Shown piece after piece: positions 2,298 to 10,971 of a stretch of DNA of 11,155 nt. Under the pieces are notes generated by a model. That model was not told where the DNA came from. It did not search any database and saw nothing but the letters and a program-made list of their open reading frames with translations. Positions within the stretch are counted from its first letter, which is position 1; each line of letters starts with the position of its first letter. The DNA lies in IMG/VR virus record IMGVR_UViG_2529292887_000008, one strand, 5' to 3'. The translations under genes and the position numbers were made by a program. This DNA is from a virus (Duplodnaviria; Heunggongvirae; Uroviricota; Caudoviricetes).

Positions 2298-2477
2298 TTA
2301 TTCTTTGGGTTCAATACCGCGTTGCTGTAATTCTTTTCGGATTATTCGTTTTATCCAAGCAGCTAAAGAGTCATCACCGTCTTGTTGTTGTGCTTTTTCC
2401 ATCTTTTCCCGTAAGTCAGGATCTAAACGGAACTGGAAAGGAGGATTACCACGCCTTTCATTCTTGTGTGTTGACAC
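2298..2477 (-). CDS. Ribbon-helix-helix (Arc/CopG-like) DNA-binding protein, 59 aa, putative GTG start; absent from the ORF track
   Basis: Manual minus-strand translation: VSTHKNERRGNPPFQFRLDPDLREKMEKAQQQDGDDSLAAWIKRIIRKELQQRGIEPKE; predicted beta-strand FQFRLD plus two helices parallels the RHH protein at 2983-3162. In-frame ATG at 2402 would remove the beta-strand, so GTG 2477 is preferred. Confidence 0.45.
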   Translation of the reverse strand: MSTHKNERRGNPPFQFRLDPDLREKMEKAQQQDGDDSLAAWIKRIIRKELQQRGIEPKE

Positions 2478-2498
2478 GTCAATTACACCCCATATAAT
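2471..2498 (+). promoter_or_regulatory. Near-consensus sigma70 promoter (TTGACA - 16 bp - TATAAT), plus strand
   Basis: -35 TTGACA at 2471-2476 and -10 TATAAT at 2493-2498; overlaps the putative start of the minus-strand RHH gene. Confidence 0.45.
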
Positions 2499-2542
2499 GT
2501 GTTTATGTGTATATACACATTACACACAACTAGCACAAAAAA

Positions 2543-2578
2543 CAACGCCCCGCAGTGATGGGAACACATACGGGGCGT
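2543..2578 (-). terminator. Hairpin with downstream U-tract on minus strand (putative terminator between modules); also 5' part of repeated leader element copy A
   Basis: Stem ACGCCCCG (2543-2550) / CGGGGCGT (2571-2578); on the minus strand followed by TGTTTTTTGTGC. Confidence 0.4.
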
Positions 2579-2665
2579 CTAACCAAACCATTAATTGAGG
2601 TAACGATTATGGTTATAAAAGAGCATAGCTTACTCTTTATACACACACAAACGCCCCGGAAACGG

Positions 2666-2688
2666 AATAATCCGTTTCATAGTTCGGT
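2666..2688. terminator. Perfect 8-bp hairpin GAAACGGA-ATAA-TCCGTTTC just past the stop of the 2698-2925 gene
   Basis: Stem-loop read directly from sequence, 10 nt beyond the minus-strand CDS end; the flanks are T-rich on the plus strand and GU-rich on the minus strand. Confidence 0.4.
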
Positions 2689-2697
2689 TTTGTGCAC

Positions 2698-2925
2698 TCA
2701 TCCTGGCGGTCGGTTTTTGCCGGATTTAAGCCGCCGTGGGTATTTATCGACAAAATCTTCAAGGGCAAATTTTTCTGGTGGCACTAAGCGCGGCGCTGGT
2801 GGTGGTATTTTTGTTCTGGTTAGTTCTTCCTCAAGTCTGGCGCAGGCTTCTGACTGCCTTTGCCGGATGATTTCATCATCTTGCGTTTGCGAGTCTTGTA
2901 TTGGTGATAGTGTGTTGTTGGTCAT
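2698..2925 (-). CDS. Small hypothetical protein (75 aa), paralogue of 2037-2240
   Basis: MTNNTLSP...EKFALEDFVDKYPRRLKSGKNRPPG; shares motifs and the upstream conserved leader with the 67-aa paralogue. Confidence 0.5.
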   Translation of the reverse strand: MTNNTLSPIQDSQTQDDEIIRQRQSEACARLEEELTRTKIPPPAPRLVPPEKFALEDFVDKYPRRLKSGKNRPPG

Positions 2926-2930
2926 GATAC

Positions 2931-2980
2931 TGCCCTGTAAAGCAATGCGCCGTAGTACCTCACACCACGGCGCTGATAGT
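2931..2980 (-). promoter_or_regulatory. Conserved ~45-bp intergenic element (copy 1) between RHH gene and small-protein gene
   Basis: CCTGTAAAGCAATGCGCCGtAGtaCCTCACaCCACGGCGCTGAT; differs from copy 2 only at loop positions of the GCGCCG/CGGCGC hairpin. Confidence 0.45.
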
Positions 2981-2982
2981 GA

Positions 2983-3162
2983 TTATTCTGATTCTTTGGC
3001 CTTGCGACGCTGGCGGTATTCAACTTCCCGCTTTAATGCAGCTGTAACAAACTGCCCTGTACTTTCGCCGGGCATTTTTACCGCCTCAACATTGTTCATA
3101 ACTTCATGTGGAACCCTTGCCGCAACTGTTTGTGATTTTGCGTTTACTGCTTTTGTCGCCAT
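2983..3162 (-). CDS. Ribbon-helix-helix (Arc/CopG/MetJ-like) DNA-binding protein, 59 aa from ATG 3162 (ORF track starts at GTG 3171)
   Basis: MATKAVNAKSQTVAARVPHEVMNNVEAVKMPGESTGQFVTAALKREVEYRQRRKAKESE: beta-strand TVAARV, helix A, G-x-S/T turn, helix B; SD GAGGGG 8 nt upstream of ATG 3162. Confidence 0.6.
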   Translation of the reverse strand: MATKAVNAKSQTVAARVPHEVMNNVEAVKMPGESTGQFVTAALKREVEYRQRRKAKESE

Positions 3163-3212
3163 GTTGAGCACCCCTCATAAAAAACAAATGCAGTATGCAG
3201 GAAAAAAAATAA

Positions 3213-3288
3213 GTGTTCAACACTTGACGTGTTTAACACCTCGATTTAAATTGGTGTTCAACACCTTATTTAGGCAAGGTGTTGAAAC
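3213..3288. promoter_or_regulatory. Operator array (4 copies of palindromic GTGTT-N-AACAC) overlapping a plus-strand promoter
   Basis: GTGTTCAACAC 3213-3223, GTGTTTAACAC 3229-3239, GTGTTCAACAC 3254-3264, GTGTTGAAAC 3279-3288; candidate -35 TTGACG at 3224-3229 and -10 TAAATT 3247-3252 between the divergent RHH gene and the replication operon. Confidence 0.5.
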
Positions 3289-3354
3289 GACGAAACCCCG
3301 CACTGTAGGAGCAGTAACGGGGCTTCTAACCAACAACGTAAACGAGGAGCCGTT

Positions 3355-3552
3355 ATGGTTGCTGTAAATCATATACCACACCTTGTACACACACAAACTG
3401 CCTTTGTGTGGCGTTTTCTGGCACTGAGTGCCGGAGAATCTCAAATCATCCACGTAACCGCCTGGACGGAACGCGAAGCGCGTAGCCGTTGCCCGTCCGG
3501 TTGTGTTGCTGTATTTGCCGCCCGTATTCGTCAGGGGGTATGCCGTGCTTAA
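3355..3552 (+). CDS. Hypothetical protein (65 aa), first ORF of rightward operon
   Basis: Strong SD GAGGAG 5 nt upstream of ATG 3355; the first ~45 nt belong to a repeated leader element (see findings), so coding status is uncertain. Confidence 0.35.
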   Translation: MVAVNHIPHLVHTQTAFVWRFLALSAGESQIIHVTAWTEREARSRCPSGCVAVFAARIRQGVCRA

Positions 3553-3730
3553 AACCTTCCGCGTTTTTTCCCGTGCTGTTAACAAGCGCGGCTATACCGT
3601 TGGCATCACGCAGAACGTGAAGGCCGTTAATATGCAAGCGGCGATTGATTCAGTAATCAGTAATTCCGGTAAAGCAGGTTTATCACAAGTCATTATTTCA
3701 GCAGTGTATGAATTAAAAGAGGTGCATTAA
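3545..3730 (+). CDS. Hypothetical protein (61 aa from GTG 3545; ORF track frame opens at 3503)
   Basis: SD AGGGGG 8 nt upstream of GTG 3545, which overlaps the stop of the preceding ORF (GTGCTTAA). Confidence 0.4.
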   Translation: MLKTFRVFSRAVNKRGYTVGITQNVKAVNMQAAIDSVISNSGKAGLSQVIISAVYELKEVH

Positions 3731-4158: not shown

Positions 4159-4458
4159 ATGAAACTTAAATATTCTGGCTTAACTGCCAGTGGCAACACT
4201 CACCCTAAATTTACGCGCGGTGATATTTACCGCGACCAGTACGGCGGCACGGTAATGATTAAGGGCGTGGCGGGACGGTGCGTAACTTACCGCCGTGAAG
4301 GTTACGAATATGATTGCGTGATGCCTGTTTATCAGTTCCGGCGTGATTTTTCTCTGGTACAGACCGCGCCGCATAACGTGCCCACCAGCAACGCCAGGGC
4401 ACGGGCAAACATCCAGAAGCTGAAAACCATGATTAACGGATTCAGGGGTAAAAAATGA
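4159..4458 (+). CDS. Hypothetical protein (99 aa)
   Basis: SD GGAGA 9 nt upstream of ATG 4159; stop overlaps the primase start (ATGA at 4455-4458). Confidence 0.55.
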   Translation: MKLKYSGLTASGNTHPKFTRGDIYRDQYGGTVMIKGVAGRCVTYRREGYEYDCVMPVYQFRRDFSLVQTAPHNVPTSNARARANIQKLKTMINGFRGKK

Positions 4459-6203
4459 AACTGGCACCGAACGTAAAAAAACAGCCACGCGGAATAAAAC
4501 ACAAAGACACAGAGGTAATTATCTTTGCGGGTAGTGATGCCTGGTCGCACGCGAAACAATGGCAGGAGCAGGATGGCCCCGCATCCGGCGATAATGTGCC
4601 GCCTGTGTGGCTTGGGCCAAAGCAGCTTGCCGAACTTGATGCGCTGAAAATTGTTCCGGATGGGAAAAAGCGCGTAAGGCTGTACCAGGCCGGAGAACTG
4701 GATTTAGTGGAGACCAAAAAGATTGGTCAGAAGCTGGCGGCGGCAGATATTCAGGACGCAAATTTTTACCACGAAGGAATGCACGTCCAGAAGTGTGAAA
4801 ACTGGCGGCGCTATCTGAATGCTGAGCGTGAAAATATTGCCGCAGGGCTTACCATGCCGGAGCAGAAAAATACGCAACTGGCACAAATGGCAGACAGTGA
4901 GCGCGCACAGATGCTTGCTGGTCGATTTGATGGCGTTTGTGTGCATCCGGAAAGTGAAATCGTTCACGTATGGCGCGGCGGGGTATGGTGTCCGGTCAGC
5001 ACAATGGAACTTAGCCGCGAAATGGTGGCGATCTATTCAGAGCACAGGGCCACTTTCAGCAAGCGCGTAATCAATAACGCCGTGGAAGCATTAAAAGTTA
5101 TTGCCGAACCAATGGGCGAGCCGTCCGGCGATTTGTTGCCGTTCGCCAATGGTGCGCTTGACCTGAAAACAGGGGAATTTTCCCCGCACACGCCGGAGAA
5201 CTGGATCACCACGCACAACGGCATTGAATACACGCCACCAGCACCAGGGGAGAATATCCGCGACAACGCGCCAAACTTTCATAAATGGCTTGATCACGCA
5301 GCCGGAAAAGACCCGCGCAAGATGATGCGTATATGTGCCGCGCTGTACATGATTATGGCGAACCGGTACGACTGGCAGATGTTTATTGAGGCCACCGGAG
5401 ACGGCGGGAGCGGTAAAAGTACATTCACACACATAGCCAGCCTTCTGGCAGGGAAACAGAACACGGTAAGCGCTGAAATGACATCGCTTGATGATGCTGG
5501 TGGACGTGCGCAGGTTGTCGGGAGTCGTCTTATCGTCCTGGCAGACCAGCCGAAATATACAGGCGAAGGAACGGGCATCAAGAAAATCACGGGCGGCGAC
5601 CCCGTGGAAATAAACCCGAAATATGAAAAGCGTTTCACGGCGGTAATCAGGGCGGTGGTGCTGGCGACCAATAATAACCCGATGATATTCACCGAACGGG
5701 CCGGAGGTGTGGCACGTCGTCGCGTGATTTTCCGTTTCGACAATATTGTTAGTGAGGCCGAAAAAGACAGGGAACTACCGGAAAAAATTGCGGCTGAAAT
5801 CCCCGTTATTATCCGCCGCTTGCTGGCGAACTTTACCGACCCTGAAAAGGCGAGGGCTTTACTACTGGAACAGCGTGACGGTGATGAAGCACTGGCAATA
5901 AAGCAACAGACGGATCCGGTTATTGAGTTTTGCCAGTTCCTGAATTTTCTGGAGGAAGCGCGCGGCCTGATGATGGGTGGCGGTGGTGATTCAGTGAAGT
6001 ACACGACCAGGAACAGCCTTTACCGCGTCTATCTGGCGTTTATGGCATACGCAGGCAGGAGCAAACCGCTAAACGTGGCTGAGTTCAGCAAGGCCATGAA
6101 GCCAGCGGCGAAAGTTTACGGGCATGAATATATTACGCGAAAAGTTAAGGGAGTAACGCAGACCAACGCAATTACAACAGACGATTGCGACGCGTTTTTA
6201 TAA
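4455..6203 (+). CDS. Replication initiator: P4-alpha / D5-family primase-helicase (582 aa)
   Basis: Walker A GDGGSGKST (nt ~5401-5427), Walker B-like RLIVLADQ, and overall resemblance to the phage/plasmid primase P4-family C-terminal domain; SD AGGGG upstream; iteron origin immediately downstream as in PICIs. Confidence 0.88.
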   Translation: MKLAPNVKKQPRGIKHKDTEVIIFAGSDAWSHAKQWQEQDGPASGDNVPPVWLGPKQLAELDALKIVPDGKKRVRLYQAGELDLVETKKIGQKLAAADIQDANFYHEGMHVQKCENWRRYLNAERENIAAGLTMPEQKNTQLAQMADSERAQMLAGRFDGVCVHPESEIVHVWRGGVWCPVSTMELSREMVAIYSEHRATFSKRVINNAVEALKVIAEPMGEPSGDLLPFANGALDLKTGEFSPHTPENWITTHNGIEYTPPAPGENIRDNAPNFHKWLDHAAGKDPRKMMRICAALYMIMANRYDWQMFIEATGDGGSGKSTFTHIASLLAGKQNTVSAEMTSLDDAGGRAQVVGSRLIVLADQPKYTGEGTGIKKITGGDPVEINPKYEKRFTAVIRAVVLATNNNPMIFTERAGGVARRRVIFRFDNIVSEAEKDRELPEKIAAEIPVIIRRLLANFTDPEKARALLLEQRDGDEALAIKQQTDPVIEFCQFLNFLEEARGLMMGGGGDSVKYTTRNSLYRVYLAFMAYAGRSKPLNVAEFSKAMKPAAKVYGHEYITRKVKGVTQTNAITTDDCDAFL

Positions 6204-6486: not shown

Positions 6487-6801
6487 ATGCGCATACATCA
6501 AAATCACTTAACAAACATGCCAGCCGAAAACATGAATCAGGGGCGACAAATGACCAAAATTCGCAGAGACAGAACAGAGCCAAAATATAAAGCGTTAGAC
6601 ATGACTGAGCACACCTTAAAGGTGGCAATCAGAACGATAGACCGCCACACGCGGGAAGGATACGCGAAGGAACATCCCGAACTGATAAGCGCATTCATGA
6701 CCACAGCGGCGGCAAACTTTGCCACGCTGACAGAACGGGAGATTGCCGAAGCGGAACAGGTAACAACCATCAACGTTAAAACCGGAGAGGTGGAATCATG
6801 A
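6487..6801 (+). CDS. Hypothetical protein (104 aa; alternative starts at 6550 or 6601 possible)
   Basis: SD AGGGGG upstream of ATG 6487; stop overlaps ssb start (ATGA at 6798-6801). Confidence 0.5.
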   Translation: MRIHQNHLTNMPAENMNQGRQMTKIRRDRTEPKYKALDMTEHTLKVAIRTIDRHTREGYAKEHPELISAFMTTAAANFATLTEREIAEAEQVTTINVKTGEVES

Positions 6802-7208
6802 CAGCACAGATAGCCGCTTACGGGCGGCTGGTGGACGACCCGCAGGTAAAACAGACCAGCAAGGGCACACCGATGACGCTGGCGCGTATGGCGGTCCCCC
6901 TTCCGTGCAGCCAGGCAGATGACGGAACGGCTACGTTATGGCTATCGGTGATGGCATTTGGTAAGCAGGCCGACTTCCTGGCTAAACATCAAAAAGGCGA
7001 CGTTGCCAGCATATCTGGCGTGATGCAGATAAGCCAGTGGACCGGACAGAACGGGGAAACGCGGCAGGGTTATCAGGTTATTGCAGACAGCGTAATCAGT
7101 GCCCGTGCGGCACGTCCTGGCGGGAACAGACGCAAAACCACAGGCGCACAGGGTAATCAGCCACCAGCGGGAGACGATGACCCCTACGGTGATGATATTC
7201 CGTTCTGA
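6798..7208 (+). CDS. ssb: Single-stranded DNA-binding protein (SSB-like, 136 aa)
   Basis: C-terminal acidic tail DDDPYGDDIPF (the canonical SSB tip is DDDIPF), Gly/Gln/Pro-rich linker, N-terminal OB-fold-like region (AAYGRLVDDPQV...LWLSVMAFGKQA...); SD GGAGAGG upstream. Confidence 0.75.
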   Translation: MTAQIAAYGRLVDDPQVKQTSKGTPMTLARMAVPLPCSQADDGTATLWLSVMAFGKQADFLAKHQKGDVASISGVMQISQWTGQNGETRQGYQVIADSVISARAARPGGNRRKTTGAQGNQPPAGDDDPYGDDIPF

Positions 7209-7243: not shown

Positions 7244-7288
7244 CAAAAAAAGCCCGATAAGTACAGGAGGAAGCTTATCGGGCTTTTG
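7244..7288. terminator. Bidirectional intrinsic terminator
   Basis: A7 tract (7244-7250), stem AGCCCGATAAG (7251-7261) / CTTATCGGGCT (7273-7283), then TTTTG. Confidence 0.55.
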
Positions 7289-7361
7289 CTTACGAGGTTA
7301 ACAGCATGGTGACTACTGTTGCTGTAAATCATTTCATAATTTGCAACACAACTCAATTTTA

Positions 7362-7412
7362 TTGCGCAAAATGCAATCATGATTATAATCATAACTGGAT
7401 GAACATCCAGTT
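7362..7412 (+). promoter_or_regulatory. Promoter of capsid/packaging operon with overlapping palindromic operators
   Basis: -35 TTGCGC 7362-7367, 16-bp spacer, -10 TATAAT 7384-7389; 10-bp palindrome AATCATGATT at 7375-7384; 20-bp inverted repeat AACTGGAT-GAAC-ATCCAGTT at 7393-7412. Confidence 0.5.
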
Positions 7413-7445
7413 GTGATTTTTTAAGTCAAAGAGGAATTTCTGACT

Positions 7446-7652
7446 ATGGCAGAAGAGAAAAAAGGCGGTGTTTCGGTGTACATAAGCCCCGAAATCGTGG
7501 AGGTGCTCAAGCAGCGCCACAAAAAAAACTATGAGGCTGGCGTAGCGGCTGGACTGGATCCGCTGATGACGCCGGAGCCGTCGATAGGTTCACTTGTGCG
7601 CTCTTATTTACTTGCGGCGCTTGGGATGCATAAAAATTATGGGGGTGAATAA
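7446..7652 (+). CDS. Hypothetical protein (68 aa), possibly RHH-like
   Basis: SD AAGAGGA upstream; the stretch VSVYISPEIVEVLKQRHKK suggests a beta-strand followed by a helix; stop overlaps capsid gene start (TAATG). Confidence 0.5.
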   Translation: MAEEKKGGVSVYISPEIVEVLKQRHKKNYEAGVAAGLDPLMTPEPSIGSLVRSYLLAALGMHKNYGGE

Positions 7653-8707
7653 TGGCAGGCAAAGCAACGGCACTTAACACTAACCAGCTTTTTGCGTACC
7701 TGAATCGCGGGGATATTGCGGAATTTAAATTCAGTCCGCTGTTTACCACGCTGTTTTTCCCGAACGTGGCGACATTCAGCACCCAAAACATCATGCTGGA
7801 TACCCTGGACATTGAAGAAGTCACCATGTCGGCGTTTTGTTCGCCTATGGTTGGCAGCCAGGTACAGCGCGATAAAGGATACGAAACCAGCACGATTAAA
7901 CCTGGCTACATGAAGCCAAAGCACGAAATCGATCCAACAAAAACCATCATGCGCATGGCTGGAGAAGATCCGGCACAGCTTAACGACCCTACCTACCGAC
8001 GTATGCGCCTGATTACTGGCAACATGCGCCGCCAGGTAAACGCCATTAAAGCGCGCGTGGAATGGCTGGCGGTGAATGCGATAACGACCGGAAAAAACAT
8101 TATTGAGGGCGAAGGCATAGAACGCTATGAAATAGACTGGAAAATACCGGAAAACTGCATCATAGAGCAGGGCAAGGGTAAAAAATGGTCCGAGCAGGAT
8201 AAAGAGATGCACGACCCAATCTATGACATCGAGCTTTATGCTGATCAGGCTGGTTGCCCCGCAAACGTCATGATTATGGGCGCTGAGGTATGGCGCACGT
8301 TACGCAGCTTTAAAAAATTCCGTGAGCTGTACGATCTTTCCCGTGGTTCAGAATCCGCCGCAGAACTGGCCTGTAAAAACCTGGGCGAAGTGGTGAGCTT
8401 TAAAGGCTATCTGGGCGATATTGCCCTTATCGTCTATTCCGGCAAATACGCTGACAGCGACGGCACAGAAAAATATTTCCTTGAGCCTGATTTGCTGGTT
8501 CTGGGCAACACCAACAATAAAGGGCTGGTGGCCTATGGTGCGATAATGGATCAGGAAGCGGTAAGAACGGGCGCAACACAAAACATGTTTTACCCGAAAA
8601 ACTGGATTGAGGACGGCGATCCGGCGATTGAGTACGTGCAGACACACAGTGCACCGCAGCCGGTACCGGCAGATATTCGCAAATTTGTTACCGTCAAAAT
8701 TGGTTAA
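7652..8707 (+). CDS. Major capsid protein, lambda gpE family (351 aa)
   Basis: Conserved blocks versus lambda gpE as I recall it: EFKFSPLF..LFF, PGYMKPKHEIDP, EDPAQLNDPTYRRMR, WSEQDKEMHDPIYDIELYA, RGSESAAELACKNLGEVVSFKGYLGDIALIVYSGKY, VLGNTNNKGLVAYGAIMD, YPKNWIEDGDPAIEY...SAP; similar length (351 vs 341 aa). Confidence 0.88.
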   Translation: MAGKATALNTNQLFAYLNRGDIAEFKFSPLFTTLFFPNVATFSTQNIMLDTLDIEEVTMSAFCSPMVGSQVQRDKGYETSTIKPGYMKPKHEIDPTKTIMRMAGEDPAQLNDPTYRRMRLITGNMRRQVNAIKARVEWLAVNAITTGKNIIEGEGIERYEIDWKIPENCIIEQGKGKKWSEQDKEMHDPIYDIELYADQAGCPANVMIMGAEVWRTLRSFKKFRELYDLSRGSESAAELACKNLGEVVSFKGYLGDIALIVYSGKYADSDGTEKYFLEPDLLVLGNTNNKGLVAYGAIMDQEAVRTGATQNMFYPKNWIEDGDPAIEYVQTHSAPQPVPADIRKFVTVKIG

Positions 8708-9510: not shown

Positions 9511-9686
9511 CGGGTCCTTCCTGGAATTATGGCCCGTTACGGGGCGGCGACCTCGCGCGTTTTCGCTATTTATGAGCCTTTTCAGGGGGGTGGTGGTGGT
9601 TTTGTTGTTTGCTCTATCTTTATGAATGAAAAGGGAAAGATGCAAACAATACACCAACCTGAAGCAGTAATTAAGTTGGTGTATTA
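9511..9686 (+). other. cos site 1 (plus orientation): lambda-like cosQ-cosN with a non-lambda cosB
   Basis: CGGGTCCTTCCTGGAATTATGGCCCGTTACG followed by GGGCGGCGACCT (9542-9553; identical to the lambda 12-nt cohesive end as I recall it) and CGCGCGTTTTCGCTATTTATGA; thereafter diverged, with an 11-bp inverted repeat AATACACCAAC (9648-9658) / GTTGGTGTATT (9675-9685) abutting the terS start. Confidence 0.7.
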
Positions 9687-10229
9687 ATGAAATCTCATCT
9701 GATGAACAAAAAAAACATGGCGAAAAGCTGCCGTGTAAGTGCGACAGCGTTCGACAAGTGGGGAGTGACTCCCGTTGAACGTAAAGGCCGTGAGGCGTTT
9801 TATGATGTTGCCAGCGTGATAGACAATAGGGTTAACAATGCAATTAGCCAGCTTACAAACGACAAAGGCGATATTGATGATGATGAACTCTTACGAGTCA
9901 GGATCAGATTACTGACAGCACAGGCGGAGGCGCAGGAACTTAAAAACGAGCGCGATCGCGGTGACGTGATTGATACTGAGTTTTGCCTGTACGCGCTTTC
10001 AAAGCTGGCGAGTCAGATTTCATCAATCATGGACAGCCTCCCGCTTACTATGCAAAGGAGCTTCCCACAGATTACCCCCGCCATGCTGGACAGGCTTAAA
10101 AGGGAAGTGGTTAAAGCCTGTAATGCCAGTGCCAGAGTTGCCGACAACCTCCCACAGATACTGGCTGATTACTTGAAAGAAACAACCGGAAACGTACCGG
10201 AAAAGTTGCTACAGAAGAAAGGCAAGTAA
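9687..10229 (+). CDS. Small terminase subunit, lambda Nu1-like (180 aa; ATG 9702 aligns better with the Nu1 N-terminus)
   Basis: LTAQAEAQELKNERDRGDVIDTEFCLYALSKLASQISSIMDSLPLTMQRSFPQ and LKREVVKACNASA parallel lambda Nu1 (LTRAQADAQELKNARDSAEVVETAFCTFVLSRIAGEIASILDGLPLSVQRRFPE...FLKRDIIKAMNKAA); N-terminus MNKKNMAKS...FDKWG parallels MEVNKKQLADIFG...QNWQEQG. Confidence 0.82.
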   Translation: MKSHLMNKKNMAKSCRVSATAFDKWGVTPVERKGREAFYDVASVIDNRVNNAISQLTNDKGDIDDDELLRVRIRLLTAQAEAQELKNERDRGDVIDTEFCLYALSKLASQISSIMDSLPLTMQRSFPQITPAMLDRLKREVVKACNASARVADNLPQILADYLKETTGNVPEKLLQKKGK

Positions 10230-10256: not shown

Positions 10257-10451
10257 AGAAAGGATCTGATAATGGCATTTTCTGGCTAAAATGCCTCGTG
10301 TCAGATCCTTTCTTTTTTTAATATTTTCATTGTTAAACAGTCTGTTACAGAGAAGAAGAACGGATCTGACTTTTGCCGGAAAATTTTCATAAACAGATAA
10401 AAACCGCGAGGCCGCCGCCCCGTAACGGGCCATAATTCCAGGAAGGACCCG
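10257..10451 (-). other. cos site 2 (minus orientation): lambda-like cosQ-cosN-cosB with altered R elements
   Basis: Reverse complement reads CGGGTCCTTCCTGGAATTATGGCCCGTTACG-GGGCGGCGGCCT-CGCGGTTTTTATCTGTTTATGAAAATTTTCCGG...CCGTTCTTCTTC...AAAAGAAAGGATCTGACA...TCAGATCCTTTCTC, collinear with lambda cosN-cosB (R3/I1/R2/R1) but with GGATCTGA-type R elements at 10262-10269, 10301-10308 and 10362-10369; cosN complement at 10409-10420. Confidence 0.7.
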
Positions 10452-10484: not shown

Positions 10485-10766
10485 ATGACAGAAGCCGAAC
10501 TACTGCGATTAATCCGCCGCGTTACCGGAATCAGCCAGCAGCATGACGAACAGGGCACGCAACCGGACAGCGTGACCGCTGAAAATTATGCGCGTGTTGT
10601 TGCTGAGGTGATGCGCCGTGATGGTATTGAGCTTAACGGCGTGGATATGCGCAACATACGAACCAGAGTCCTTGAGTTGCTGGCATACCGTCGCCGCGTG
10701 GAGATGTATCGGGAGAAGGAGAAAATCACGTACCACTGGAAGAAGCCGGAACGGTTGCGGCGGTAA
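10485..10766 (+). CDS. Hypothetical protein (93 aa)
   Basis: SD GGGGGG 4 nt upstream of ATG 10485; protein-like composition; unknown family. Confidence 0.5.
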   Translation: MTEAELLRLIRRVTGISQQHDEQGTQPDSVTAENYARVVAEVMRRDGIELNGVDMRNIRTRVLELLAYRRRVEMYREKEKITYHWKKPERLRR

Positions 10767-10850
10767 CTCACTGAGATTAAAGCAAAGCTCAAAATTGCGC
10801 TGGCTGAATGATCATTATGATTACTTATGTTTACGCAGATGATTAAGGCC
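10762..10850. repeat. Direct repeat copy 1 (~80 bp) with embedded palindromes
   Basis: CGGTAACT...TTAAAGCAAAGCtCAAAATTGCGCTGGCTGAATgATCATTATGATTAC[ttatgtttac]GCAGATGATTAAGG; contains AATCATTATGATT (10811-10823). Confidence 0.6.
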
Positions 10851-10893
10851 TAAACCGTTGATTATTCCACAATCCCCCATTGGGGGAAGCTGG

Positions 10894-10971
10894 CGGTAAC
10901 TGGTTGAACTTAAAGCAAAGCGCAAAATTGCGCTGGCTGAATAATCATTATGATTACGCAGATGATTAAGG
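10894..10971. repeat. Direct repeat copy 2 (~78 bp) with embedded palindromes
   Basis: CGGTAACT...TTAAAGCAAAGCgCAAAATTGCGCTGGCTGAATaATCATTATGATTACGCAGATGATTAAGG; contains AGCGCAAAATTGCGCT and AATCATTATGATT (10944-10956). Confidence 0.6.

Follow-up and report, generated by a model that had tools for sequence, protein, structure and literature searches.

The window analysed here, that is the whole stretch of 11,155 nucleotides from the viral record IMGVR_UViG_2529292887_000008, is a Gram-negative phage-inducible chromosomal island, a phage satellite. It encodes an integrase (1-1230), AlpA (1605-1793), a D5_N/DUF5906 primase (4455-6203) whose gene is followed by iterons, an SSB (6798-7208), a lambda E-like capsid protein (7652-8707) together with a D-like decoration protein, and a Nu1-like small terminase (9687-10229). 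Between int and alpA lie three ACAAYGTG repeats in 10-bp phase (1279-1318) that may be binding sites for the integrase or AlpA. The small terminase gene is flanked by an inverted repeat of 76 nt (9511-9586 / 10376-10451, 87% complementary) that could delimit an invertible segment or represent a duplicated packaging-site sequence, and two direct repeats of 66 nt with 89% identity (10759-10824 / 10892-10957) are found close to the right end. The regulatory region is 99.5% identical to that of a locus of E. coli 2013C-3181, located beside roxA, where it is attached to a different replication module.

This regulatory region is composed of tandem modules. Each of them comprises two small minus-strand genes, a ribbon-helix-helix one and an 'MTN...' one, followed by a promoter and then by a cassette, which is the subject of this study. 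In the downstream module, the early promoter PB (TTGACG-17-TAAATT, 3224-3252, plus strand) is the top plus-strand site of its region with a PWM score of 9.72. It is overlapped by three palindromic GTGTTYAACAC operators (3211-3221, 3229-3239 and 3254-3264), with a half-site nearby (3279-3289). The ylcI gene, which encodes a YlcI/YnfO ribbon-helix-helix protein of 62 aa (2983-3171, minus strand), is divergent from PB, and we infer that its product binds the PB operators. The promoter of the upstream module, PA (TTGACA-16-TATAAT, 2471-2498, plus strand), has 12 of 12 consensus matches and the palindrome ATGTGTATATACACAT (2505-2520) just downstream. A transcript from PA would cross both module-B genes (75 aa and YlcI) in antisense orientation and then enter the icd-like gene described below. 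Another repeat of the tandem modules, 2230-2304 / 2915-2989 (80% identity), contains a GCGCCG...CGGCGC hairpin between the minus-strand ribbon-helix-helix and MTN... genes, listed as terminator-like at 2973-2947 by the terminator scan.

The first-pass annotation had described a repeated leader element, common to two copies A and B, in which a hairpin, an SD, ATGGTT and TACACACACAAAC follow each other, and had placed copy B right after the operator array, at the opening of the replication operon. Every part of this description is found in the sequence, and the three operators and PB directly precede copy B. This copy consists of the hairpin (3292-3326; 14 bp with one bulge on the minus strand, where we read it as the terminator stem-loop of a leftward RNA), TCTAACCA (3325-3332), ACGAGG/SD (3342-3349, the SD GAGGAG being at 3344-3349), ATGGTT (3355-3360) and TACACACACAAAC (3386-3398). 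In copy A, an orphan cassette (2537-2652, minus strand, with its U tail at 2537-2543), the hairpin is at 2544-2579, TCTAACCA at 2578-2585, the SD at 2597-2600, ATGGTT at 2609-2614 and TACACACACAAAC at 2640-2652. Local alignment of copy A (2541-2652) with copy B (3288-3398) gives 71% identity over 107 columns, with a score of 47 that was reached by 0 of 1000 shuffles (14.5 +/- 2.2). TCTAACCA occurs twice in the window, in copies A and B only, for 0.21 occurrences expected. The A/B repeat is a piece of a larger tandem duplication that covers the whole regulatory module. The ATG of copy A is not the start of a short ORF, as its frame continues to 270 aa (2555-3367, plus strand); this ORF is antisense to two annotated genes and looks spurious.

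A third, partial copy, C, had also been proposed and is indeed present (7245-7356, minus strand). It has ACGAGG (7292-7297), ATGGT (7306-7310) and the exact 15-mer GTTGCTGTAAATCAT (3358-3372 in copy B, 7318-7332 in copy C), the window having just six repeated regions of this length. This copy is a diverged icd 5' fragment with a two-way terminator hairpin (7251-7284), preceded by an A run and followed by a T run. A leader peptide could be ruled out for this copy: the ATG is absent from most related islands, so that its ORF is not conserved. The relatives that keep the ATG differ inside the 15-mer (e.g. GTTGCCGGAAATCAT).

Copy B overlaps the first gene of the replication operon, an ORF of 65 aa (3355-3552, plus strand) for which the choice between a true gene and a regulatory leader had been left open. 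It is a true gene. Its product has significant similarity over most of its length to the Icd-like family (PHROG 29966 at 8.5e-32, PHROG 1743 at 5.4e-23, with PHROG 6196 also matched). In a protein search, 112 cluster representatives were recovered with identities of 63% or more, nearly all of them named Icd-like, and PGAP annotates an Icd-like protein in the 99.5% identical locus. The next conserved gene begins at a GTG (3545) overlapped by the stop codon of this ORF. Membership of a conserved protein family and this overlap together rule out a leader peptide or attenuator ORF. By tblastn against 50,697 phage records, the Icd-like protein was found in one record only, as a domain fused to a longer protein, with no cassette nearby. 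The Icd protein of phage P1 is a cell-division inhibitor. The window protein resembles it by its matches to PHROGs 29966, 1743 and 6196, division inhibition being putative here, but the family differs by its modular N-termini, of which the family alignment shows at least five variants.

That alignment also clarifies the coding part of the repeated element. ATGGTT corresponds to icd codons 1-2 and TACACACACAAAC to codons 11-15 (M-V and V/I-H-T-Q-T of the Icd-like N-terminus). The Icd-like N-terminus of the window is MVAVNHIPHLVHTQTAF, and that of P0038, MAIKEHSLLFIHTQTAF, is the intact form of the MVIKEHSLLFIHTQT of copy A. From the family alignment and the full-length version in P0038, ATGGTT and TACACACACAAAC are coding and copy A reads as an icd gene cut after codon 15, its frame being broken at 2653. 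The same junction is found in at least six other loci, behind three different hairpin variants. The first-pass annotation would be refuted if, in related islands, the element only reflected coding conservation of a real protein family. This is the case for ATGGTT and TACACACACAAAC, but not for the hairpin and TCTAACCA, which are non-coding and show compensatory changes.

The hairpin and the invariant TCTAACCA are a separate non-coding element. As anticipated, it recurs in related islands: the hairpin with C(G/T)TCTAACCA is carried by 98 of 127 related loci, behind at least eight unrelated promoter/operator modules and upstream of two icd leader types or of an 'ash'-type ORF, and TCTAACCA is invariant in 29 of 29 aligned cassettes. 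With a query of 93 nt, the cassette was detected in 1031 of 5426 complete E. coli genomes, including O157:H7 EDL933 (NZ_CP008957.1, 1,682,877-1,682,956), some genomes having up to six copies. No Rfam family was found at the site (whole window at E<=1; the 121 bases 3265-3385 at E<=10), and blastn of 3172-3560 against the 50,697 phage records gave no match. The 14-base pattern CGGGGCNTCTAACCA returned from genome contigs, among the matches listed, chance hits in unrelated phyla only, and no relevant paper came up in our literature searches on the hairpin sequence and on PICI antisense RNA. We ruled out a tRNA-like or RNase P substrate ('stem + ...ACCA'): the CCA is 4-6 nt off the stem and the structure is on the opposite strand.

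The hairpin had implicitly been read as a structure of the mRNA leader, but its pairing is kept on the opposite strand. In the comparative alignment of 29 distinct cassettes across related islands, the hairpin is conserved with compensatory changes. There are six such stem variants (e.g. CCCCG/CGGGG vs CCCGG/CCGGG, or ACUG/CAGU vs AGUG/CACU), and both sides are changed at four pairs of the terminator helix. The minus-strand hairpin is the more stable one in 19 of 21 distinct variants, with a mean of -22.6 vs -16.4 kcal/mol, and in copy B with -21.9 vs -16.6 kcal/mol. The EDL933 hairpin, which is the sixth variant, pairs perfectly over 15 bp as minus-strand RNA (-27.0 kcal/mol), whereas its plus-strand fold contains mismatches (-16.3 kcal/mol). 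Across the 29 distinct cassettes, standard pairs represent 97.6% of the terminator helix on the minus strand vs 83.0% on the plus strand, slid controls reaching 42-59% pairing. On the minus strand, 55 of its 377 cells are G·U and none is A·C. The cassettes share ancestry, so these counts are not to be taken as independent events.

On the same strand, a U-rich tract is found 3' of the stem in every promoter module, though the modules are otherwise unrelated (e.g. GUUGUUUUUUGUG in copy A and CUUUGCUUUUUUAAG in EDL933). In copy B, the U-rich tail UUUC GUCGUUUC extends to 3284. The U run that follows the stem scores 6/8 in copy A and is good in EDL933 and most modules, while it is interrupted in copy B-type tails (4/8, UUUCGUCGUUUC). 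The stem-loop itself is stable and G+C-rich on the minus strand (14-16 bp, -20 to -27 kcal/mol, with covariation). Thus, with a minus-strand structure and a U-rich tract, the hairpin is best read as an intrinsic terminator of leftward transcription. Neither the copy A nor the copy B hairpin was listed by the terminator scan of the window, probably owing to the bulge and to the loop limit.

A second helix can be formed in the minus-strand RNA, in which the complement of the start-codon region (5'-AACCA) pairs with an invariant UGGUU(A), TCTAACCA (3325-3332) providing the 3' strand. This helix is 99.3% paired, its G·U pairs are mismatches in the mRNA and, whatever the type of cassette, only 0-2 nt separate its start from the predicted start site. 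The whole predicted RNA is stabler than its sense complement in 29 of 29 cases (-33.6 vs -22.5 kcal/mol). Altogether, the RNA structure bears the marks of selection on the antisense strand.

A candidate antisense promoter is located in copy B at 3368-3396 on the minus strand, with a -35 TTGTGT (3396-3391), a 17-nt spacer and a -10 TATGAT (3373-3368). Its score of 7.24 makes it the top minus-strand site in 3200-3480, scores of at least 7 being found at only 0.49 sites per kb per strand. The other two copies likewise have the top minus-strand promoter match of their own region at this place, these scores being consensus matches: 6.14 in copy A (-10 TATGCT 2627-2622, -35 TTGTGT 2650-2645) and 6.47 in copy C (TTGAGT-17-AATGAT, 7356-7328). 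Furthermore, a -10-like hexamer TAT(G/A/T)(A/C)T is present on the minus strand of 50 of 50 distinct cassettes, 33-40 nt upstream of UGGUUAGA. Its variants are confined to positions 4 and 5 and include changes of His to Tyr (TATAAT) and of His to Asn (TATTAT). Since a conserved His codon overlaps the hexamer, constraint on the protein may account for part of this conservation. The spacing between hexamer and hairpin is likewise maintained in the 'ash'-type leaders, although their ATG is shifted by 6-7 nt and they use a different frame of the shared DNA (AAATCATA..CCACAC). In icd-type cassettes, TTGTGT stands 17 nt upstream of the hexamer and corresponds to the ACACAA of the motif singled out in the first-pass annotation. 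This -35 is weak (3/6) and missing in ash-type and L338-type cassettes. Finally, the gene-specific table of Cappable-seq data for uninduced EDL933 (PMC10469882) has start sites for int and alpA and none for the icd-like gene, which, as far as this table goes, agrees with a silent sense promoter.

In the ash-type leaders (n=42), variation is concentrated in two loops, with 11 distinct 7-nt loops among 36. Those of L203-L246 have a 5-bp hairpin, CGAUA/UAUCG, with a variable 7-nt loop between TCTAACCA and the SD, the flanking 60 nt being >95% conserved. In the window, a plus-strand hairpin CACACAAA/UUUGUGUG followed by GCGUUUUCUGG (3390-3420) is found within icd codons 12-19. Its stem includes the -35 of the candidate antisense promoter, and icd genes located behind a C4 RNA do not have it. 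This hairpin could act as an attenuator, formed on leader binding, but its folding energy is unremarkable (z -0.69).

The surroundings of icd in relatives bring in a known antisense RNA. The C4 model (RF01695) matches the relatives L002, L328, L330, L332 and L333 with 69-82 bits, upstream of icd. Matches to C4/isrK are documented in Gram-negative PICIs (PMC10111431). In the window, C4, isrK and a1b1 gave no match (E<=1), and C4 (RF01695, clan CL00128) gave none in 3265-3385 (E<=10). The icd genes whose product starts with MATTP... have neither the cassette nor the His6 motif, and they are located directly behind a C4 RNA (69-79 bits). The presence of C4 before cassette-less icd genes indicates that icd start regions are regularly under antisense RNA control, and the cis-antisense RNA that we predict would take the place of C4 in the window. 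L002 shares the operators and hairpin of the window; behind them come an ash-type ORF, the isrK/c4-a1b1 targets, a C4 RNA (82 bits) and, last, icd. The isrK/c4-a1b1 targets and C4 are at 3024-3225 in L002 and at about 1259-1449 in L328, L330, L332 and L333, upstream of icd; L333 has a second C4 copy downstream of icd (1837-1924).

We propose, with a confidence that we put at about even, that the cassette is the gene of a cis-antisense RNA of ~76 nt that would cover the icd ribosome site and start codon in the manner of P22 sar or IS10 RNA-OUT. As the hairpin folds in the opposite-strand RNA, it most likely serves to terminate a small antisense RNA that is so far undescribed. From the structure and its strand, the covariation, the U tail, the promoter-like motif at constant spacing and a distribution complementary to that of C4, we infer that this RNA is produced and pairs with the mRNA, with the consequences outlined below. 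The non-coding half of the repeated element is probably the 3' end of this new and widespread antisense RNA, whose mechanistic kind is known.

In copy B, the predicted RNA (3284-3361, minus strand, ~76-80 nt) is complementary to the icd SD and AUG. It would be transcribed from a weak promoter within the first icd codons, with a -10 TATGAT made of codons 5-7 around His6 and a -35 TTGTGT inside TACACACACAAAC. Starting around 3360, 7 nt downstream of the hexamer, it would run leftward over the start codon and the SD to end around 3285, at the hairpin and the U-rich tract. It is predicted to fold into two hairpins, the 5' one presenting the anti-SD in its loop and the 3' one being the terminator. 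PB would fire toward this antisense promoter, ~100 bp away. With PB repressed, the antisense RNA would pair with leaky icd mRNA and block icd translation; expression of the replication genes further down would drop as well, through the translational coupling of icd to its neighbour. Upon induction of the island, transcription from PB would be strong enough to override and occlude this weak antisense promoter. Copy A would be the same cassette left before a truncated icd, and copy C a diverged fragment with its own terminator.

The minus-strand structure and its U tail would also be expected of a leftward intrinsic terminator or insulator without a dedicated small RNA, which would shield the operator/promoter region and the divergent repressor gene from stray or read-through antisense transcription. 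In the tandem arrangement, the copy A hairpin would then end the leftward YlcI/75-aa operon of module B, and the 75-aa gene, which runs leftward, does have its stop at 2698, ~120 nt before this hairpin. The candidate promoter, a moderate consensus match, is also compatible with this explanation. Nonetheless, single-module islands have no leftward gene to the right of the hairpin. Moreover, the second helix, also specific to the antisense strand, has its start at the predicted start site and requires an RNA with a 5' end close to the icd ATG, and the spacing between the -10-like hexamer and the hairpin is constant across the 50 cassettes. We consider a terminator or insulator alone to be rather unlikely.

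We also looked at the copies as recombination scars, in which the hairpin/TCTAACCA and a (CA)n run would serve as linkers for the exchange of regulatory and replication modules, with no regulatory role. Indeed, BLAST match boundaries cluster around position 3338 of the window, right after TCTAACCAAC, and the same hairpin joins at least eight promoter modules to three or four kinds of downstream genes. The copy A junction, after ACACAAAC, has a single origin and then spread, and the unconserved ORF of copy C points in the same direction. Against this, the compensatory changes and the one-sided G·U pairs reveal selection for RNA pairing beyond that for sequence identity. Recombination as the sole role of the element is unlikely; the two roles, as linker and as RNA, are compatible.

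The reading of the first-pass annotation, a structure of the rightward mRNA leader (a stabiliser, a protein-binding site or a translational switch) with the short ORF as a regulatory leader, appears improbable to us. The plus strand does fold (-16.6 and -18.4 kcal/mol, z -2.6 and -3.6), AACCA can pair with the AUGGUU region and hide the start codon, and the element is always at the 5' end of the early transcript. However, the 55 of 377 terminator-helix cells that are G·U on the minus strand are A·C mismatches on the plus strand, with none the other way, the start-codon helix is likewise mismatched there, and the ORF encodes a conserved protein and is coupled to the gene that follows. Finally, a second, establishment-type promoter for the divergent repressor, similar to lambda PRE, with icd-internal transcripts that would pass the imperfect copy B hairpin and reach ylcI (2983-3171), is highly improbable: while ylcI does lie downstream of the candidate promoter in the same orientation and copy B-type tails are poor U tracts (UUUCGUCGUUUC), a stable G+C-rich stem of 14-16 bp, selected on that very strand, stands between them and the cassettes behind other modules have good U tracts.

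Coming back to the cis-antisense RNA, one of its closest parallels is offered by the C4 RNA of P1/P7 and the CI RNA of P4, with the same regulated gene at the same position and an RNA that masks the icd start at the head of the operon. C4 differs in that its gene lies on the sense strand, upstream of icd, and in that the RNA matures by processing of the leader and works via two short loops, whereas the RNA predicted here would be encoded opposite its target and fully complementary to it.

The sar RNA of P22 immI is an antisense RNA of 68-69 nt directed against the ribosome-binding site of ant. As for Pant and Psar in P22, a weak promoter faces a strong repressible early promoter, here PB, and the predicted RNA would cover the ribosome-binding site of the downstream gene and end at an intrinsic terminator. 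The sense promoter is moreover controlled by ribbon-helix-helix repressors, Arc and Mnt, in P22, as it would be here by an Arc-like protein of 59 aa and the YlcI/YnfO protein of 62 aa. In a review, sar is listed as inhibiting anti-repression (PMC5415839). The target differs, being the icd-like gene here and ant in P22, and we found no similarity to sar by sequence or covariance model.

RNA-OUT of IS10 is an antisense RNA of ~70 nt whose promoter is inside the first codons of the regulated gene; it covers the SD and AUG and forms a stable stem-loop. The cassette would share the position of the promoter in the first codons, the coverage of the SD/AUG, a stable stem-loop and the facing arrangement of pIN and pOUT, all of these being predicted here. 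It differs in that RNA-OUT belongs to an insertion sequence and is a single long stem-loop, and no homology of the cassette to RNA-OUT was found.

The regulation of Gram-negative phage-inducible islands is currently described via AlpA and helper-phage inducers and, to our knowledge, an RNA layer is known in such islands only for the P4-type CI/C4 RNAs. If the proposal is true, an unannotated small antisense RNA would be present in about a fifth of sequenced E. coli, including O157:H7 EDL933, and antisense RNA would gate the first gene of satellite replication operons as an alternative to C4 at the same control point.

We can extend this model to a more speculative one, which we hold to be improbable as it stands. 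The cassettes would form an antisense RNA family in which the variable hairpin loops are a specificity code against cross-regulation of co-resident satellites, and the orphan copy A, perhaps with copy C, would be a trans-acting regulator that joins both tandem repressor modules and the late operon in one RNA-based switch. The duplex of the predicted copy A RNA with copy B mRNA is calculated at -80 kcal/mol, about half of the -159 kcal/mol of the cognate duplex, with shuffles at -38 +/- 4 kcal/mol.

The late operon has a control region of its own. The late promoter at 7362-7389 (TTGCGC-16-TATAAT) is overlapped by the near-palindrome ATTGCGCAAAATGCAAT and directly followed by a hairpin ACTGGATGAACATCCAGT plus TGTGATTTTTT; this region (7361-7425) is kept in about 80 related loci. 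A late promoter with a promoter-proximal terminator recalls lambda PR'-tR', a layout which suggests that the capsid operon needs an antiterminator, possibly borne by the helper phage.
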